From positions 1 through 57,711 of the forward strand of contig JADFXH010000012.1 of NCBI GenBank assembly GCA_015233675.1: a DNA stretch of 57,711 nt, written 5' to 3'. Of this stretch, positions 27,400 to 35,975 are shown one piece after another (within the stretch, counting starts at the first letter, position 1; the number at the start of each line of letters is the position of its first letter). The translations under genes and the position numbers were made by a program. The stretch is from Candidatus Omnitrophota bacterium (lineage in GTDB: Bacteria; Omnitrophota; Gorgyraeia; Zapsychrales; Fredricksoniimonadaceae). The notes under the pieces were generated by a model. That model was given only the letters and a program-made list of their open reading frames with translations. It was not told where the DNA came from and did no database searches.

Positions 27400-29112
27400 A
27401 TGGAATTGCTAAAGAAACGCAGTTTTACCTGGGACCTTTTTTACATCGGACTTATCCTCTTTTTTTCTATCCTTATTTCCTTGCCTCTTTTTAAAGGGCA
27501 ATTTATCTGCAGCAGTGATTACGCCGGGACATTGAGAAACCTTTTAGCCATGAAGCAGTGTTTAGGACATGGCCAGTGGGTGGTACGATGGGTGCCTGAC
27601 CTGTATTTTGGGTACGGTTATCCCCTCTTTAATTTTTATCCTCCGTTATTTTATATTCTGGGAGCTATGATAGCGAATATTGGCGCAGGAATAACCATGG
27701 CCTATGATCTTTCTTTATTTATTATTCTTTTTCTTTCGGGCTGTGCGATGTACCTTTTTGCCCGAGAGCTTTGGGGGAAGCAAGGAGGGTTTGTTTCTGC
27801 GACGGCTTATCTTTTTGCCCCTTATCATATGGTGGACCTTTACATGAAGGCGGCTGGCGCTGAAACCATGTCTTTTATTTTTTTGCCTCTTATTTTATGG
27901 TCTTTTTATAAATTACAGCAAACATCTTTGAAGCGTTACATCGTATACTCGGCCTTATCCTGCGCGGGACTTCTTTTGACGCATAATTGCACAAGCATTA
28001 TTTTCTTTCCTTTGGTGCCTTTTTATATTTTATTGCTTTTTTGGCCGTATTCTTCCTGGCAACGATGGATATCTTTGATGCACAGCTTTCTGGTTTTGGC
28101 GCTGGGAGTTGGATTGGCCGCGTTTTTCTGGCTGCCGGCGTTTGTCGAGAAGAAATTTGTGCACGTGGAATTAATGGGGCAAGGCAATTTAAATTTTAAA
28201 GAAAACTTTGTATATTTTAAGGACTTGATCTCACCTGGTTGGGGCAATAATATGCCTTATTTTGGCAGTCCTCATATGGTTAGCCGTATCGGCATTGTGC
28301 ATGGCCTGTTGGTGTTAATCGTGCTGTTGGGTTTTAAGAAAATTGTTGAGCACAACCCGCGGCTAAATAGACAGATTTTTTTCTTCCTTGCGGCCCTGAC
28401 AGGATCAATCTTTCTTACTATTAATTATTCCATGGTTATTTGGGAGCATATCCGTGTTTTACAGTATTTACAGTTTCCTTTCAGGTTTTTGACTGTTGTT
28501 GTACTTGCGGGCAGTGTTATTGCCGGGGGGGTCGTTTTATGGGTACAGCAGGAGCATCGCTTTAAAGTAATGTTTGTTGCGGTTGTATTGATTTTTTTGA
28601 CAAACTTTTCTTATTGCCACCCGAGAGATACCTTTCCCTGCGACTTAAGGCTTGTCAAGACTGACCCGGGCAAATTTCTTTCCGTATTAGTTCCCCAAGA
28701 TGGAGGGGACTATATTCCGATTTGGGTCAAAAACGGGGTCAAGGGATTACCGAGTTCTATGCCATTACAGAAGCTACAATCGTTTTCAAAAGAGGGTCAA
28801 GTTATTGATTCTACAAAAAGATCACCTTTACGCTACAGGTTCATGGTCCAAGCGCAAAAGGTATCGATATTTTGTTTTAATAGTTTTTATTTTCCAGGAT
28901 GGACGGTAAAAGTGGATGGGCACTATGTAGAAGTTTTAACAGACAATCCTTGGGGGTTCATTATTTTTCCATGTCCTCAGGGTGTCCATAACGTGGATAT
29001 CTATTTTGGGACAACCCCGTTACGCCAAATGGCCAAACGCATCACGATAGGTTCCTTGATTCTGCTGGGGCTGGTCTTTATATTTCCGTTTAGAAAATTT
29101 AATACTGGTTGA
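27400..29112 (+). CDS. Polytopic GT-C-type membrane protein (PTPS-related/YfhO-like)
   Basis: GQWVVRWVPDLYFGYGYPLFNFYPPL, AYLFAPYH, LQFPFRFL, YFPGWTVKVDG. Confidence 0.75.
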   Translation: MELLKKRSFTWDLFYIGLILFFSILISLPLFKGQFICSSDYAGTLRNLLAMKQCLGHGQWVVRWVPDLYFGYGYPLFNFYPPLFYILGAMIANIGAGITMAYDLSLFIILFLSGCAMYLFARELWGKQGGFVSATAYLFAPYHMVDLYMKAAGAETMSFIFLPLILWSFYKLQQTSLKRYIVYSALSCAGLLLTHNCTSIIFFPLVPFYILLLFWPYSSWQRWISLMHSFLVLALGVGLAAFFWLPAFVEKKFVHVELMGQGNLNFKENFVYFKDLISPGWGNNMPYFGSPHMVSRIGIVHGLLVLIVLLGFKKIVEHNPRLNRQIFFFLAALTGSIFLTINYSMVIWEHIRVLQYLQFPFRFLTVVVLAGSVIAGGVVLWVQQEHRFKVMFVAVVLIFLTNFSYCHPRDTFPCDLRLVKTDPGKFLSVLVPQDGGDYIPIWVKNGVKGLPSSMPLQKLQSFSKEGQVIDSTKRSPLRYRFMVQAQKVSIFCFNSFYFPGWTVKVDGHYVEVLTDNPWGFIIFPCPQGVHNVDIYFGTTPLRQMAKRITIGSLILLGLVFIFPFRKFNTG

Positions 29113-29126
29113 TTCTTAGCGAGCGT

Positions 29127-29159
29127 CCCTCTCCCTTTCCCTCCCCTTAAGGGGGAGGG
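29127..29159. repeat. REP-like palindrome
   Basis: ccctctcccttt-CCCTCCCC-ttaag-GGGGAGGG. Confidence 0.6.
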
Positions 29160-29203
29160 AATTTTTTCTTAATACAGACCTGTTACGAAAAATAAAAAAA
29201 CAC

Positions 29204-29232
29204 TTGCAATTTATTTGTTTTTATTTTATACT
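29204..29232 (+). promoter_or_regulatory. Sigma70 promoter of the sulfur amino acid operon
   Basis: TTGCAA, 17 nt spacer, TATACT. Confidence 0.7.
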
Positions 29233-29292
29233 ATACTAACTTGATAGATTTAGATGGGAATGCTTTAGAATATTTTTTGAAAGAAGAAAAAA

Positions 29293-29382
29293 ATGAAAAA
29301 AACTTTTAGCGCTATTTATATGATGATGTGTTGCTATATGGCGATGTGCCGCCTTAGCGGCGGGGGAGGTCTTCCTGTGTGA
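29293..29382 (+). CDS. Met/Cys-rich leader peptide MKKTFSAIYMMMCCYMAMCRLSGGGGLPV
   Basis: 5 Met + 3 Cys in codons 10-19; lies between the promoter and a terminator upstream of metY/cysK. Confidence 0.85.
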   Translation: MKKTFSAIYMMMCCYMAMCRLSGGGGLPV

Positions 29383-29413
29383 CGCATCATTTAACAATTA
29401 GGCATGACGGGAC

Positions 29414-29460
29414 AACCCACTGCTAATACAAGGATAATAAAGCAGCGGGTTTTTTGTTTT
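29414..29460 (+). terminator. Attenuator terminator
   Basis: aacccactgct/agcagcgggtt stem followed by tttttgtttt, upstream of the first structural gene. Confidence 0.8.
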
Positions 29461-29478
29461 ATAAATTTGGAGGACAAA

Positions 29479-29670
29479 ATGAGTAAAAAGCAGAACCAAA
29501 AGAATATTGTGAATGATGCCATTATCAAGGATATTGCGGAAGCTGTCGGATCATTAGAATACGGAATAGTCACAATTAAAGTGCATGAAACTAAGATCAT
29601 TCAAATCGACATTACTGAAAAAAAGCGCTTTGATGATGTCTGGCGCATTGAAGGAGGTGGTGGAATATAG
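29479..29670 (+). CDS. YezD/DUF2292-like small protein with an EGGGGI tail
   Basis: GSLEYGIVTIKVHETKIIQIDITEKKRF; GGAGG RBS; ATG at 29479. Confidence 0.8.
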   Translation: MSKKQNQKNIVNDAIIKDIAEAVGSLEYGIVTIKVHETKIIQIDITEKKRFDDVWRIEGGGGI

Positions 29671-29754
29671 ACATCTTATATTAGAGAAGTTTGCTGTAAA
29701 TTGACCGTACAAAACGGCAATGTTAAAAAAATCAATAAAAAATAAAAATCGAAT

Positions 29755-29802
29755 GATTTTACCAGATAACTGGAGAATCCAAGCTAAATCAGGAGGATTC
29801 TT
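29755..29802 (+). promoter_or_regulatory. Overlapping alternative hairpins at the next RBS
   Basis: gattttaccag-ataa-ctggagaatc competes with gagaatcc/ggattctt, which overlaps AGGAGG. Confidence 0.45.
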
Positions 29803-29805
29803 AAA

Positions 29806-30669
29806 ATGAAACACGTAATCAAATTAGCATTAATCGTTTTAGGTGTTATTTTTGCTGGAAATCAGGCTTGGGCAGGACTTCCTTTAAATAACCTGGAAGG
29901 CGTTGGCGGTGTTGCGTTTAATCCGCTGGCGTATCCCGCAGAAGGAGACCCTCTCTATAGTATCGGAGATACCGAGGTCATAAGCAAGCCAAGGTTTGGT
30001 ACATGGTACGCCCGCCTGGAGCAACCAAAGATCGATTGGGGGTCTATTGGGGGTGCCACGACCTTATTTAAGAGATTAGAAGTTTCAGAAGGTTATCAAT
30101 ACATTTCATGGGCGATTCCTGGGAAGGATTTCCATAAGAATAATATTGGGGCCAAACTTGTGTTATTGCCGGAGAATTCTTTTGATACAAAGTTTCTTCC
30201 CGAAATCTCTGTTGGAACGATTTATAAAACAACGAGCGATAAAGTCCTTCGTCAACTGGGATTGCCGACACACGGATCAGGTGAGGATTGGTATGCTGTC
30301 GCGACGAAAACAATCACTCAGCTGCCTTTGCCGGTTGTCCTGTCAGCTGGTGTTCTTTCGTCAGAAGAGGTTGGGACCGGTGTTCTTGGTTTTACAAATG
30401 AAAGAAGAGAAACCGCTTTTGGAAACGTTGATGTTGTTCTGCCGCACAACTTTGCTGTGGGCTATGAATTCAAACAAGGAGAAGAATACAATAATACAAC
30501 ACCAATACATGGAAATGCCAATTATTGGGATGTGCATGTGGCATGGCTGGCGAATAAGAACCTTACTCTTGTTTTGGCCTATACCGATACGGGAAGGTAC
30601 AATCTTGCCCATAATACAAAGTATGGATTGGGAAGCGGGCCTGTTTTAAGCGCGCAATATGCGTTTTAA
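29806..30669 (+). CDS. Outer-membrane beta-barrel protein (DUF3034-like)
   Basis: Signal peptide ...AWA, LEGVGGVAFNPLAY, alternating strands, C-terminal YAF. Confidence 0.6.
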   Translation: MKHVIKLALIVLGVIFAGNQAWAGLPLNNLEGVGGVAFNPLAYPAEGDPLYSIGDTEVISKPRFGTWYARLEQPKIDWGSIGGATTLFKRLEVSEGYQYISWAIPGKDFHKNNIGAKLVLLPENSFDTKFLPEISVGTIYKTTSDKVLRQLGLPTHGSGEDWYAVATKTITQLPLPVVLSAGVLSSEEVGTGVLGFTNERRETAFGNVDVVLPHNFAVGYEFKQGEEYNNTTPIHGNANYWDVHVAWLANKNLTLVLAYTDTGRYNLAHNTKYGLGSGPVLSAQYAF

Positions 30670-30675
30670 AGAATT

Positions 30676-30716
30676 CCCCCTGCCCCTCTCTTTTTTATAA
30701 TGAGAGGGGCAGGGGG
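30676..30716. repeat. Perfect 15-bp inverted repeat inside the operon
   Basis: ccccctgcccctctc-11 nt-gagaggggcaggggg; no U tract after the stem. Confidence 0.8.
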
Positions 30717-30721
30717 CGTAA

Positions 30722-32059
<1,338 letters not shown>

Positions 32060-32068
32060 GAGGGGTTT

Positions 32069-33004
32069 ATGGCAAAAATATTTATAGACATCACTAAAAC
32101 CATTGGCAACACGCCGTTAGTACGGCTAAATCGCATCACCGAAGGCAGTGAGGCAGAGGTGCTGGTAAAACTGGAATCCTTTAATCCGCTTTCAAGCGTT
32201 AAGGACAGGCTCGGAATTGCGCTTATTGAAGATGCTGAAAAAAAAGGACTTCTTAAAAAAGACACAGTCATTATCGAGCCTACCAGCGGCAATACGGGAA
32301 TTGCCTTGGCTTTTATTGCTGCGGCTAAAGGCTACAAATTGATCCTTACTATGCCGGACACCATGAGTCTTGAGCGCAGGCAATTACTTAAGATTTTTGG
32401 AGCTGAGTTGGTCTTGACTGAAGGGTCAAAAGGCATGAAAGGTGCTATTGAAAAAGCCGAGGAACTCGCTCGCAGCACACCTAACAGCTTTGTCCCGCAG
32501 CAATTTAATAACCCTGCTAATCCTGAAATTCACCGCAAGACTACGGCTGAGGAAATTTGGAATGATACTGATGGTAAAGTTGACATCCTGATTTCCGGCA
32601 TAGGAACGGGAGGTACTATTACAGGTGTGGCCGAAGTCATAAAAAAAAGAAAGAAAAGTTTTAAGGCAATTGCCGTCGAGCCTGATGCTTCTCCGGTTTT
32701 GTCCGGGGGTGTTCCCGGGCCGCATAAGATCCAGGGCATAGGTGCCGGGTTCGTGCCCAAGGTTTTAAATCGTGATATCATCGATGAGGTTATCCGCGTT
32801 ACCAATGAAAATGCCGGAGAAACTGCACGTCGTGCCGCTCGTTTGGAAGGCATTCTTGTTGGGATTTCAAGCGGAGCTGCTTTGTGGGCAGGACTCGAGG
32901 TTGCTAAACGCAAAGAAAATAAAGGGAAAACCATTGTTGTGGTATTGCCGGATACCGGCGAACGGTATCTGTCAACATGGCTTTTCCAAGAAGTTAAGGC
33001 ATGA
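32069..33004 (+). CDS. cysK: Cysteine synthase A
   Basis: [52 protein letters not shown]. Confidence 0.96.
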
Positions 33005-33044
33005 CGAGCGGATACTCTTTGAGCTTGATGAAGGGTAATTAATT

Positions 33045-33308
33045 ATGGAAAATAAAAAGTTACGTATTTATTGCCCGAATGGACTTCATTTACGAGAAGC
33101 GGCCCGCGTTGTTACGGCTGCAAGAAAATTTATTTCTAAGATCCAGATTTGGCATAATTCTACCAAAGCCGATACGCATTCAATCCTCGAGGTGTTATTG
33201 TTGGGGGCCCCTCAAAATTCAGAAATCACATTGGTGATAGAAGGGGCGGACGAAAAAGAGGCAATGAATGAATTAATGCAGATATTTCAGGATGGGGGAG
33301 GGATTTAA
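33045..33308 (+). CDS. HPr-like phosphocarrier protein with a C-terminal FQDGGGI tail
   Basis: CPNGLHLREA (His15 equivalent), HSILEVLLLG (Ser46 equivalent), GADEKEAM. Confidence 0.85.
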   Translation: MENKKLRIYCPNGLHLREAARVVTAARKFISKIQIWHNSTKADTHSILEVLLLGAPQNSEITLVIEGADEKEAMNELMQIFQDGGGI

Positions 33309-33745
33309 ATAGAATACGTTGGTGCTTTTTTAACTGATTCAACCTGATCTGCCAGATCAGCGAAAGTGATATGATCTACAACATCGGAAGTTAATTTAAA
33401 CACCTTTTGCCAAATTGGCCGGAATGCGCATTTGTATAAGTCTCCGCAAGCGGTGTATTTTTTGTTGACGCAGGCAATAGGTTCGAGCGGACCATCGACA
33501 AATCGTACAACTTCTCCTAAAGTTATATTTTGGGGCGGCCTGGAAAGTAAATAGCCGCCAACCTTGCCTCGGCGGCTTTCAATAAAACCGCCTTTTTTGA
33601 GTTCTAATAAAATTTGTTCGAGAAATTTAGTAGGAGCATCAATGCGACTTGCAATTGCAGGAATGGTAACTAATCCTTCGTGATAGTGAAGCGCTAAATC
33701 TAGAATTGCTTTTAACGCGTAGTCGCCTTTATGAGTAATTTTCAT
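33305..33745 (-). CDS. Rrf2-family regulator (IscR/CymR-like)
   Basis: KGDYALKAILDLA, FLEQILLELKKGG, SRRGKVGGYLL, three Cys, ends PTYSI. Confidence 0.92.
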   Translation of the reverse strand: MKITHKGDYALKAILDLALHYHEGLVTIPAIASRIDAPTKFLEQILLELKKGGFIESRRGKVGGYLLSRPPQNITLGEVVRFVDGPLEPIACVNKKYTACGDLYKCAFRPIWQKVFKLTSDVVDHITFADLADQVESVKKAPTYSI

Positions 33746-33777
33746 ATATTATCCTATAATCTCCATTGACATAATGT

Positions 33778-33805
33778 AGTATAAAATATTTTTTGTTTTA
33801 GTCAA
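33778..33805 (-). promoter_or_regulatory. Sigma70 promoter for the Rrf2 gene
   Basis: Minus strand TTGACT, 16 nt spacer, TATACT. Confidence 0.6.
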
Positions 33806-33853
33806 GGCAGTATTTTTAATTTGCTTTTTTAAAAAATATGTGTTAAGCTTTTA

Positions 33854-33869
33854 ATGTAAAGCTTTACAT
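33854..33869. promoter_or_regulatory. Palindromic operator 1 (LacI-like)
   Basis: ATGTAAAGCTTTACAT, perfect 16 bp, just downstream of TTGCTT-17-TAAGCT (33821-33849). Confidence 0.75.
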
Positions 33870-33913
33870 AATAAAAAGAGTCAGTGATTTTTAGGGGGTA
33901 TTTTTTTATTAAG

Positions 33914-33935
33914 TTTATGTAAAGCTTTACATAAA
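33914..33935. promoter_or_regulatory. Palindromic operator 2 (LacI-like)
   Basis: TTTATGTAAAGCTTTACATAAA, perfect 22 bp; same core as operator 1. Confidence 0.75.
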
Positions 33936-33953
33936 TAACAAAGAGAGGACTTT

Positions 33954-35975
33954 ATGGCCAAAAATACTGCTTTGAATGCCGGTCAAAAGATCTTAAACCT
34001 TTTAGTTTTTATCTTCTTTGCAGTTTTTTGTTTGATAATTCCTTCCCTATTAAAAGCTCAAGAAAAAGATAATCCGAATGTTGAAAATTTTTGGAAAAAT
34101 TATTTTCAAGGCAATCTTTTGCCTAAACAGGCATTCAAATTGAACAATCCGGGGCAATCCGTTTTTATGGAGTATAGCAAATATGGTGAATTTCATAATT
34201 TAGGAGAAGCCAATTACCGGTATGCAATTAAGGACAAGGCGGCTTTACAGGAAGCTATAGGAGAGGGGATTTATCCTAATATGGATGTTTTTAAAGATCC
34301 GCAATACCGCAAATTGAATAAACAGGGACTGCTTGACGGGAATCCCTGGGAATATGTGCATTCAAAAGATTTTGAAAAGGCCTTTTATATATGGACTCAG
34401 GCTCAAGAGGATCCGGGGGTCAGAACGTTTTATACGGGCAAGGTTTTGGAAAATGCCGGCCTTATTACGCAGGCAATTAAGTCTTATTATGCGGCGATTG
34501 TTTATTTTCCGCACTCGGCCGCCTGGGCCGCTGACCATTCTTTTGTCTGGTATATTGCGCCGACGGCCATCAGTTCAATTCAGCGTTTGTGCAGGGATTA
34601 TCCTGAGCTTAGCTGTGAACTTAAGGGAGCTTCATTTGAGGTTCAAAAGGGGCTGGCTGTAGATTTAAGTCAGGACATCATTAAAGTTAACCCGGGAAAA
34701 ATAATTCGTAAAACTATCCAGGAAAAAATTAATGAAATGCCTAAGCTGGGTTCTTTAAAAATAGCGGAAACCAGGGGAAATGGTTTGGTCAGGATGATTA
34801 AATTTGCTAATGGCGAATGGCAAATGTTGGTTGAGGGAAAACCATATTTTATCAAAGGCATAACCTATGCGCCTACTGAAGTTGGGCTAGGCCCCAGCAA
34901 GGATTTCAATTTTGATGCCAGATGGATGTCCTCTGACAAAAATAAAAATGGGACCATTGATGCTCCCTATGAGGCATGGGTGGACGATAAGGGGCAAGGC
35001 GGCCAACACAAACCTATTGGTGATTTTGAGTTACTCAAAGAGATGGGGATCAATACTATCCGTATTTACGCGCCTAATAATCCCATTAGTAAATATGATC
35101 CAACCCTGGTTAATAAACCGCTTTTGCGTGATTTGTATAAAAAATTTGGCATTAAAGTGATCATCGGAGATCCGTTAGGCGCTTATACTTTGGGTTCGGG
35201 AGCCTCCTGGGAAAAAGGAACAGATTATACCGATCCCCTGCAACTGGCAAAGATGAAGGAAGTCGTAAGGGCAAAGGTCATGGACCTCAAGGATGAGCCG
35301 TTTGTACTTATGTGGGTTATAGGTAATGAAAATAATCTGCCTCCTAAATACTTAGGAGTTAATGCGAGCAGGACCAATGCGGCCTCACATCCTGAAGCAT
35401 ACGCCAGATTTATCAATGAGATTGCGCAAATGATTCACGAAATTGACGGCAACCATCCTGTTGCTGTCGGGAACCTTGAATTAGGCCTCATAGATTATTA
35501 TAAACAATATGCGCCTGCCATTGACATATTAGGGGTCAACTCTTATCGGGGAGAAGAAGGGTTCGGGGCTCTTTTTATTGATGTTAAAAAAGAGCTGGAT
35601 AAGCCTGTTTTAATAACGGAATACGGTTGTGATGCTTATACGCAGGCGCAAGGGCCGGATGAAGACAGGCAGTTAAAATATCTTCAGGGAAATCTCCATG
35701 ACATTATTTATAATATGCCGGGAGGTCCCGGCGTTGGCAATACCATCGGAGGGGTTGTTTTTGAATACCTGGATGAATGGTGGAAGGCGCCTAATGATCC
35801 CGAAGACCATCAATCAATCGCCTATCAACAAATGGGACAGTCGCCCGACGGATATATTCATGAAGAATGGTTTGGGATTGCAGGTCAGGGCAACGGCAAG
35901 AATTCACCTTTTGAAAGGCATTTGCGCAAGTCGTATTATTATTTGAAAAATATTTTAAACAGTATACCTGAATAA
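33954..35975 (+). CDS. Secreted clan GH-A (GH2-like TIM barrel) glycoside hydrolase with an N-terminal helical module
   Basis: YFIKGITYAP, MGINTIRIY, WVIGNENN (acid/base), KPVLITEYGCD (nucleophile), FEYLDEWWK. Confidence 0.75.
   Translation: MAKNTALNAGQKILNLLVFIFFAVFCLIIPSLLKAQEKDNPNVENFWKNYFQGNLLPKQAFKLNNPGQSVFMEYSKYGEFHNLGEANYRYAIKDKAALQEAIGEGIYPNMDVFKDPQYRKLNKQGLLDGNPWEYVHSKDFEKAFYIWTQAQEDPGVRTFYTGKVLENAGLITQAIKSYYAAIVYFPHSAAWAADHSFVWYIAPTAISSIQRLCRDYPELSCELKGASFEVQKGLAVDLSQDIIKVNPGKIIRKTIQEKINEMPKLGSLKIAETRGNGLVRMIKFANGEWQMLVEGKPYFIKGITYAPTEVGLGPSKDFNFDARWMSSDKNKNGTIDAPYEAWVDDKGQGGQHKPIGDFELLKEMGINTIRIYAPNNPISKYDPTLVNKPLLRDLYKKFGIKVIIGDPLGAYTLGSGASWEKGTDYTDPLQLAKMKEVVRAKVMDLKDEPFVLMWVIGNENNLPPKYLGVNASRTNAASHPEAYARFINEIAQMIHEIDGNHPVAVGNLELGLIDYYKQYAPAIDILGVNSYRGEEGFGALFIDVKKELDKPVLITEYGCDAYTQAQGPDEDRQLKYLQGNLHDIIYNMPGGPGVGNTIGGVVFEYLDEWWKAPNDPEDHQSIAYQQMGQSPDGYIHEEWFGIAGQGNGKNSPFERHLRKSYYYLKNILNSIPE

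Follow-up and report, generated by a model that had tools for sequence, protein, structure and literature searches.

Genes and leader at the locus

We analyzed a 57,711-nt stretch of DNA from Candidatus Omnitrophota bacterium (assembly GCA_015233675.1, contig JADFXH010000012.1, positions 1 to 57,711; hereafter the window), in which positions 29293–29460 lie upstream of genes for sulfur amino acid synthesis. Here, a short leader open reading frame (ORF) rich in Met and Cys codons is followed by a terminator, and several predicted RNA helices share the sequence in between. Judged from comparative sequence analysis, this element is likely to be a ribosome-mediated transcription attenuator in which Met (AUG) and Cys (UGU/UGC) serve as hunger codons.

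Five genes on the plus strand follow the leader, i.e., yezD, a DUF3034 gene, metY, cysK and a gene for an HPr-like protein; next comes a convergent gene for an Rrf2-family regulator (Table 1). In relatives, the usual order on a single strand is rrf2-leader-yezD-(DUF3034)-metY-cysK. The original prediction, made from the sequence of the window, had placed a metY-cysK operon under control of the leader. It named the target genes correctly, but the operon was incomplete and has to be read as yezD-DUF3034-metY-cysK. The genes metY and cysK match the amino acids that would be sensed, i.e., the targets fit the proposed signal.

Table 1. Features of the yezD-metY-cysK locus in the window
Feature	Position	Strand	Remarks
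Sigma-70-like promoter candidate TTGCAA-17-TATACT	29204..29232	+	9/12 consensus matches; candidate only
6-4-6 palindrome TAACTT-GATA-GATTTA	29237..29252	+	5'-terminal RNA hairpin or operator; outside attenuator proper
Leader ORF MKKTFSAIYMMMCCYMAMCRLSGGGGLPV	29293..29382	+	Homologous or analogous ORFs in at least 24 further species
Regulatory codon cluster AUG AUG AUG UGU UGC UAU AUG GCG AUG UGC	29320..29349	+	5 Met, 3 Cys, codons 10–19
P1 5' arm, first five Met/Cys codons	29320..29334	+	Pairs with 29377–29390
Region 1, UGCCGCC, last Cys codon and Arg/Leu codons	29347..29353	+	Pairs with region 2 (29356–29366)
Region 2, antiterminator 5' strand UAGCGGCGGGGG, Ser/Gly codons	29355..29366	+	Pairs with 29416–29425; mimics region 4
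Inner antiterminator helix, 29369–29382 with ~29398–29412	29369..29412	+	Encloses P1 3' arm 29377–29390
Region 3, terminator 5' arm ACCCACUGCU	29415..29424	+	Stem conserved with compensatory pairs
Region 4 AGCAGCGGGU (29441–29450) and U-tract UUUUUUGUUUU	29441..29460	+	Terminator 3' arm
yezD-like gene (DUF2292), first after terminator	29479..29670	+	PF10055, 46 bits
DUF3034 protein with signal peptide	29806..30669	+	Syntenic in most relatives
metY, O-acetylhomoserine sulfhydrylase / homocysteine synthase	30767..32059	+	TIGR01326, 681 bits, above cut-off
cysK, cysteine synthase A	32069..33004	+	TIGR01139, 481 bits, above cut-off
Rrf2-family regulator, CymR/IscR-like, convergent	33305..33745	−	rrf2_super above cut-off; CymR and IscR models below

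The leader ORF comprises 29 codons from the ATG at 29293 to the TGA at 29380–29382, and the run of Met and Cys codons that had been noted within it is present in the sequence. Chance is a very poor explanation for so dense a cluster: when all six frames of the 2.12-Mb assembly were scanned, no other 11-codon window had eight Met/Cys codons, and the runners-up had six. Three leader peptides that we queried against Pfam and NCBIfam matched no family.

A U-tailed terminator had also been predicted, and a hairpin with a U-run was found at 29415–29460. Its stem pairs ACCCACUGCU with AGCAGCGGGU and contains one A x C mismatch, the loop has 16 nt, and U6-G-U4 follows at 29450–29460. A simple terminator scan missed this hairpin because its loop is longer than 8 nt. 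Further upstream, AGCGGCGGG (29356–29364) complements CCCACUGCU (29416–29424) at eight of nine positions, with one G.U among the eight; the single C x A mismatch of this antiterminator pairing recurs in the terminator itself. The original prediction had described these 8/9 pairs correctly and had drawn the proposed antiterminator too short. It extends over 29355–29364 with 29416–29425 and includes an inner helix, in which the strand 29369–29382 consists of the last leader codons and the stop codon. Equivalents of the inner helix exist in relatives, e.g., CCUAUGUA with UAUAUAGG.

The antiterminator duplex was calculated to have −16.0 kcal/mol compared with −10.2 kcal/mol for the terminator hairpin, and 5 of 300 shuffled sequences equaled it. 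Region 2 looks like region 4 (AGCGGCGGG and AGCAGCGGG here, GGUAGAGGGGGC and GGAUGAGUGGGC in the Velamenicoccus clade) and is therefore able to replace region 4 on region 3. Moreover, region 2 has a second partner in region 1, with which it forms the 1:2 or protector helix, and the 3' arm of a further helix, P1, spans the leader stop codon. As a whole, the fold of 29240–29470 was modestly better than shuffles (z = −1.9). The Shine-Dalgarno (SD) sequence of yezD (29469–29474) was unpaired in all folds, i.e., it is not sequestered.

The Met/Cys leader in other Omnitrophota

We collected leaders of relatives by a YezD search, by covariance models made from four and then eleven leaders, and by a yezD-anchored scan of public genomes. 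At least 24 further species of Omnitrophota had small ORFs with clustered Met and Cys codons upstream of their yezD/metY or cysH operons. The Met/Cys cluster is thus conserved in orthologous leaders, a point on which the original prediction had been made to depend. Directly 5' of yezD, relatives carried small ORFs such as MRHGFIRMCCCMAMCRLYGGGDPPM, MNENPKNINMMMCCMRMCCFHGSGGTPV, MNRLFSSIPMMMCCLAVCRLRGGGGPPV and ..ICCMMMHARCC... The covariance models matched 7 of the 168 genomes of the order; in a phylum-wide sample of 401 genomes there were 27 with a match, 16 of them with the full Met/Cys leader. From the yezD-anchored scan we obtained the leader MAMYPQDMMCRMMRCLRGRGGPFA and its relatives in the clade of Ca. 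Velamenicoccus archaeovorus LiM, and also two leaders of unrelated RNA sequence, MFKKNNCRNLMNLMCPLTMTGGGCM and MFKKNCNNRICSMCMCPLTLTGGGWM. In LiM, the leader lies at about 1,422,700–1,422,850 of NZ_CP019384.1 (L032/L071). At loci L045, L050 and L052, the RNA sequence is unrelated and Met/Cys clusters are still present.

Pooled leaders (n = 28) contained 14.6% Met and 10.7% Cys, compared with 2.3% and 1.2% in the long ORFs of the genome under study, and both residues were present in every single leader. The order within the cluster is shuffled and the composition kept, as in MMMCCYMAMC, MCCCMAMC, MMCRTMCC, CCMMMHARCC, CSMCMC and MMTCSMAMCC. Counts of AUG/UGY trinucleotides in frames 0, +1 and +2 were 165, 53 and 10, and the Met/Cys frame alone is open. 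At the proper distance from the start codon, 20 of 24 leaders have an SD-like 4-mer. Toward the N terminus, the leader peptides diverge freely, with the frame kept. Selection on codon identity predicts shuffled order together with kept composition and frame, a pattern that an incidental ORF in a structured RNA would not show.

The leader is not confined to the gene order of the window. In locus L020 it stands directly before a second metY, and in six other Omnitrophota it lies within rrf2-leader-DUF2061-cysH(PAPS reductase)-permease-cysG operons. With leaders before both metY and cysH operons, its role thus extends to sulfur assimilation as a whole.

Some loci had variant leaders. Those of L024, L027 and L047, also from the yezD-anchored scan, are short, carry an Arg-Met-Cys-Cys run only (CGA/AGA AUG UGU UGY), lack a terminator and end 20–30 nt upstream of the SD of yezD; this variant may act at the level of translation. 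L004/L023 (G014, same genus) have a 5' half as in the window (YMMMCCYLAMCRL), with the 3' half replaced and the ORF ending in ...ERVLPRKR. Regions 2–4 are gone there and a different hairpin without a U-run is found instead; this leader may have decayed or been rewired.

Conservation and covariation of the RNA pairings

We aligned 21 leader sequences. In this alignment, which was fitted to the structural model, 84.5% of the cells of the terminator-permissive fold were paired, compared with 42–56% when partners were slid. Compensatory changes were seen in 21 pairs, and none of 500 shuffles reached the observed value. All ten pairs of the P1 helix had compensatory changes in the model-fitted alignment; for the 1:2 helix, pair 39–51 was found as UA in 8, CG in 6 and UG in 4 sequences. 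An independent MAFFT/RNAalifold alignment recovered the 1:2 helix and the terminator as well, with CG 6, UA 6 and UG 4 at pair 43–55 of the 1:2 helix. Compensatory CG/UA changes in the protector pairing 29347–29353/29356–29366 are hence present in two independent alignments.

For the 2:3 helix, 74.6% of the cells were paired, compared with 33–58% for slid partners, and one pair occurred as UA 7, CG 5 and UG 4. Complementarity of regions 2 and 3 was also kept by quite different sequences, i.e., GGGCGGCGGG/CCCCCGCCGC in L045, GGAGGCGG/CCGCUUCC in L050 and CACGGGUGG/CCACUGCCCGUG in L020. These divergent designs appear to be better evidence for the 2:3 pairing than covariation. The 2:3 duplexes had −11 to −20 kcal/mol, which matched or exceeded the terminator hairpin in most leaders (mean z −1.4, 24 leaders).

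Terminator loops in the leader family are long and A-rich, with 13–19 nt. GGGACAA (29409–29415), located 5' of the terminator arm, is strongly conserved. We considered whether the conserved terminator could be a repeat of a general kind or resemble an uptake signal. This was ruled out, as the GGGAYAACCCRCTRC motif is single-copy per genome, occurs in 9 of 168 genomes from the order and has no second copy in the genome under study.

Ribosome-masked folding and the proposed mechanism

To follow the leader in the presence of a ribosome, we hid all RNA as far as 12 nt beyond the A-site and let the remainder fold as transcribed before region 4. When codon 10, 12, 16, 18 or 19 occupied the A-site, the antiterminator 29355–29364/29416–29425 formed, stacked on the inner helix 29369–29382/~29398–29412. 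With the ribosome at the stop codon, the terminator was the sole structure able to form. Full-length equilibrium folds with a masked ribosome were noisy and often kept the terminator; folds became informative once the transcript was cut before region 4.

A conserved Met/Cys cluster, compensatory changes in the terminator and the 1:2 helix, and a 2:3 pairing kept across unrelated sequences all speak for a Met/Cys attenuator as originally proposed. We infer that the leader ORF is translated, that ribosomes stall within it, that the alternative folds compete kinetically and that the element responds to both amino acids. In the proposed course of events, transcription would start here probably from the promoter at 29204–29232 and in most relatives would read through from rrf2, and a ribosome would then translate the 29-codon leader. 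With plentiful Met-tRNA and Cys-tRNA, it would reach the UGA at 29380 and cover both region 2 and the 5' side of the inner helix. The terminator stem of region 3 (29415–29424) and region 4 (29441–29450) would therefore form, and transcription would terminate at the U-tract before yezD. If the leader were not translated, P1 (29320–29334/29377–29390) and the 1:2 helix (29347–29353/29356–29366) would sequester region 2, again with termination as the outcome.

If either charged tRNA became scarce, the ribosome would stall within 29320–29349 and melt P1; stalls at codons 16–19 would melt the 1:2 helix as well. The freed region 2 would pair with region 3 once this had been transcribed, stacked on the inner helix, and the terminator would be blocked. 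Read-through into yezD-DUF3034-metY-cysK would follow. With terminator loops this long and A-rich, the antiterminator would have time to form first.

Weighing the attenuator against other explanations

A number of observations weigh against a Met/Cys attenuator. Covariation of the 2:3 helix on its own was not significant, as 138 of 500 shuffles show. The leader terminator in the window is modest, i.e., it has −10 to −13 kcal/mol with its A x C mismatch and 16-nt loop, and a canonical SD is absent before the leader ORF, where a purine-rich GAAAGAAG is found instead. With region 4 present, the terminator fold was 2–6 kcal/mol more stable despite a stalled ribosome; the switch must therefore be kinetic, as in classical systems. 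A stall at codon 14 left the 1:2 helix intact in the masked fold, and codons 16–19 should therefore be the more effective half of the cluster. Moreover, Met starvation would also limit fMet-tRNA and so reduce initiation on the leader, which favors termination. The terminator module with its GGACGGGACAA flank (GGACGGGACAACCCRCURCC...U-run) was also found without a Met/Cys ORF (L019/L073, L021, L078, L082, L083 and L086) and may therefore have another input. Finally, a strong and perfect GC-rich palindrome without U-tail, CCCCCUGCCCCUCUC...GAGAGGGGCAGGGGG, lies at 30675–30718 between DUF3034 and metY. It may uncouple metY-cysK from yezD here or may stabilize that part of the transcript; because this palindrome precedes metY, co-transcription here rests on conserved synteny.

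The attenuator could instead read general ribosome progress or a programmed pause. Here, a GGAGG-like/AUG-GUG/stop module would time the coverage of region 2, and the Met/Cys codons would be of secondary importance. Indeed, AUG or GUG is the final sense codon of 22 of 23 leaders and stands 6–9 nt past a GGAGG-like block, i.e., in an SD-start-stop geometry (29365–29382 in the window). L084 keeps CCUAUGUAG out of frame, and L085 (G336) has only AGAGAGG-N7-AUG-UAA and the terminator before its DUF2061-cysH operon. However, RNA pairing already accounts for these nucleotides (region 2 with regions 1 and 3; CCUAUGUA with UAUAUAGG) and can explain the AUG/GUG-stop module, which may have a ribosome-parking role; the peptide encoded there is not conserved (G-R-R-G-M-P-M, A-R-G-G-C-F-M). 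Ribosome progress also leaves unexplained why every leader is enriched in Met and Cys and why the targets are sulfur genes, and we regard it as a very unlikely explanation.

We also judge it very unlikely that the element is an RNA-only switch, i.e., a riboswitch or a site to which a protein binds, built on the GGACGGGACAACCCRCURCC terminator with an incidental ORF. Strong nucleotide conservation, including the unpaired GGGACAA, would suit such a switch, as would the six loci in which the terminator occurs without a Met/Cys ORF, several of them near sulfur genes (yezD, HPr, family 2A encapsulin). Yet no Rfam model matched at the leader or in 20 related loci, and the ORF keeps its frame, start codon and SD although it is free to diverge in its N-terminal portion. 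Met/Cys clusters in the leaders of unrelated RNA sequence (L045, L050, L052) and the shuffled codon order at kept composition argue in the same direction. The small ORF could also encode a functional Met/Cys-rich micropeptide, metal- or sulfur-binding or located in the membrane, with the hairpin as its terminator or as a partial insulator. It is kept across a phylum, hydrophobic and Cys-rich; but its sequence is poorly conserved beyond composition, with 18 to 37 residues in shuffled order and no match to a Pfam or NCBIfam family for the three peptides queried. In addition, a terminator separates it from co-directional biosynthetic genes, a competing helix overlaps its coding region, and it always lies immediately 5' of sulfur-assimilation operons, so that a micropeptide is hardly probable at all.

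Relation to known leader-peptide systems

In Proteobacteria, trpL, hisL, pheL and leuL are classical leader-peptide attenuators, and the thrL and ilv leaders sense several amino acids. The Omnitrophota element resembles them in its short ORF with codons for the end product, in the predicted 1:2/2:3/3:4 logic and in a terminator whose U-tract precedes the first of the structural genes; its codons specify two amino acids that these genes produce, which is also the case for thrL and ilvL. It differs from them in that Met and Cys would be sensed, in its Omnitrophota host, in an antiterminator 5' strand made of Gly codons and in the size and A-richness of the terminator loops. Unlike the classical leaders, it lies mostly inside an operon directly after rrf2, and one hunger codon is at the same time the start codon. 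The classical systems are summarized in the introduction of bioRxiv 10.1101/834739.

Leaders with Cys codons have been predicted upstream of actinobacterial cys/cbs operons, without terminators (Seliverstov et al. 2005, PMC1262725). In mycobacteria, polycysteine leaderless small ORFs act translationally by SD sequestration, with no intrinsic terminator (Canestrari et al., bioRxiv 10.1101/834739). Common to these and the Omnitrophota leader is an upstream Cys-rich small ORF that would inform genes of cysteine metabolism about the supply of Cys-tRNA. Those of mycobacteria are leaderless and use Cys alone, whereas here Met and Cys codons are mixed, a terminator and a predicted antiterminator are present, and the ORF is preceded by a predicted 5' untranslated region of ~54 nt or by an upstream rrf2. 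With a hairpin and U-tract before yezD and an unpaired yezD SD, the element does not belong to the mycobacterial leaderless translational class.

Controls by the S-adenosylmethionine (SAM-I/S-box) riboswitch, the Met T-box and CymR have the same targets, i.e., metY, cysK and sulfate assimilation, and the output of S-box and T-box elements is likewise a choice between terminator and antiterminator in the leader. Unlike SAM-I/S-box and T-box elements, the leader has no ligand- or tRNA-binding fold that Rfam would recognize, and the proposed sensor is the translating ribosome. A search of positions 28000–34000 against Rfam 15 at E <= 10 gave nothing at the leader, with chance miRNA-like matches on the palindrome 30675–30718 only. 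At gathering threshold, 20 related loci contained no riboswitch or T-box, and yezD loci without the leader likewise had no Rfam element. A SAM-I riboswitch was found in 1 of 41 relatives, i.e., it is nearly absent from the lineage.

Our literature searches, which left most subscription journals outside their coverage so that an older description is possible, found no description of a Met or Met/Cys leader-peptide attenuator, of Omnitrophota leaders or of a yezD leader. The reviews and comparative studies searched describe attenuation for Trp, His, Phe, Leu, Thr and Ile/Val and translational control for Cys in mycobacteria, and none for Met or for Met plus Cys. The statement in the original prediction that nothing of this kind was known in the lineage agrees with these searches and with Rfam, but has to be supplemented by the Cys-codon leaders of Actinobacteria. 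The predicted specificity for Met plus Cys appears new, as does the lineage Omnitrophota, for a mechanism that is itself known.

A Met-sensing leader is awkward, as AUG would serve both as hunger codon and for initiation, and a shortage of Met starves initiation too; a conserved example would show how this is solved. If our reading is true, the attenuator would be the missing regulator of sulfur amino acid synthesis in Omnitrophota, a large and almost uncultured phylum that lacks SAM-I here. It would also tie yezD/DUF2292, DUF3034 and DUF2061, all of unknown function, to sulfur limitation. The alignments made in this work suffice to build a covariance model for annotation directly.

More tentatively, one may think of a phylum-wide sulfur 'ribulon', an idea that we find possible though doubtful. 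In such a system, a family of leaders reading Met-tRNA and Cys-tRNA, with at least three unrelated terminator/antiterminator designs, would coordinate yezD-metY-cysK with cysH-cysG-permease and replace the lacking SAM riboswitches. The GGAGG-like block-AUG/GUG-stop module would park a terminating or newly initiating ribosome over the antiterminator strand, with the fMet/Met supply as a separate input.

Promoter candidate, palindromes and neighboring genes

The original prediction had called TTGCAA-17-TATACT a clean promoter. The sequence is present, with TTGCAA at 29204–29209, a 17-nt spacer and TATACT at 29227–29232, but the match is not above chance for the region, in which 12 promoter-like sites at 9/12 were counted against 10.3 expected, i.e., without excess over shuffles. 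In most relatives, the leader instead lies directly 3' of the rrf2 gene.

With an Rrf2 gene of the CymR/IscR-like type in the locus, control is therefore probably dual, i.e., exerted by the attenuator and by an Rrf2 protein layer. The yezD-like protein is weakly similar to the sulfur-starvation protein OscA (NF033785, 27 bits, below cut-off). Homologs of YezD in Syntrophobacteraceae are 52–63% identical, and the rrf2-yezD-metY loci there (L053, L058, L059, L061, L062, L064 and L066) had no Met/Cys leader. This hints at a movement of the rrf2-yezD-metY cluster between the phyla of Omnitrophota and Syntrophobacteraceae without the leader. The terminator modules that lack the ORF sit between rrf2 and yezD, or before an HPr-like, a porin-like or a family 2A encapsulin gene (NF041162, above cut-off).

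A 6-4-6 palindrome as in Table 1, 5–6 nt past the −10 box of sulfur-gene leaders, was also seen in L051, L054, L082, L085, L086, L021 and L017. Its variants across Omnitrophota include TAACTC GATA GAGTTA, AATCCC GATA GGGTTA and CATCTC AGTA GAGATG. Because its half-sites co-vary and are not conserved, the palindrome looks more like a hairpin at the 5' end of the RNA than like an operator for Rrf2. A pattern search of the genome under study for an Rrf2-operator regulon with this palindrome gave AT-rich chance matches only. Further upstream, at 29132–29161, a GC-rich perfect palindrome, UUCCCUCCCC UUAA GGGGGAGGGAA, is followed by a U-run and is the terminator of the upstream gene.

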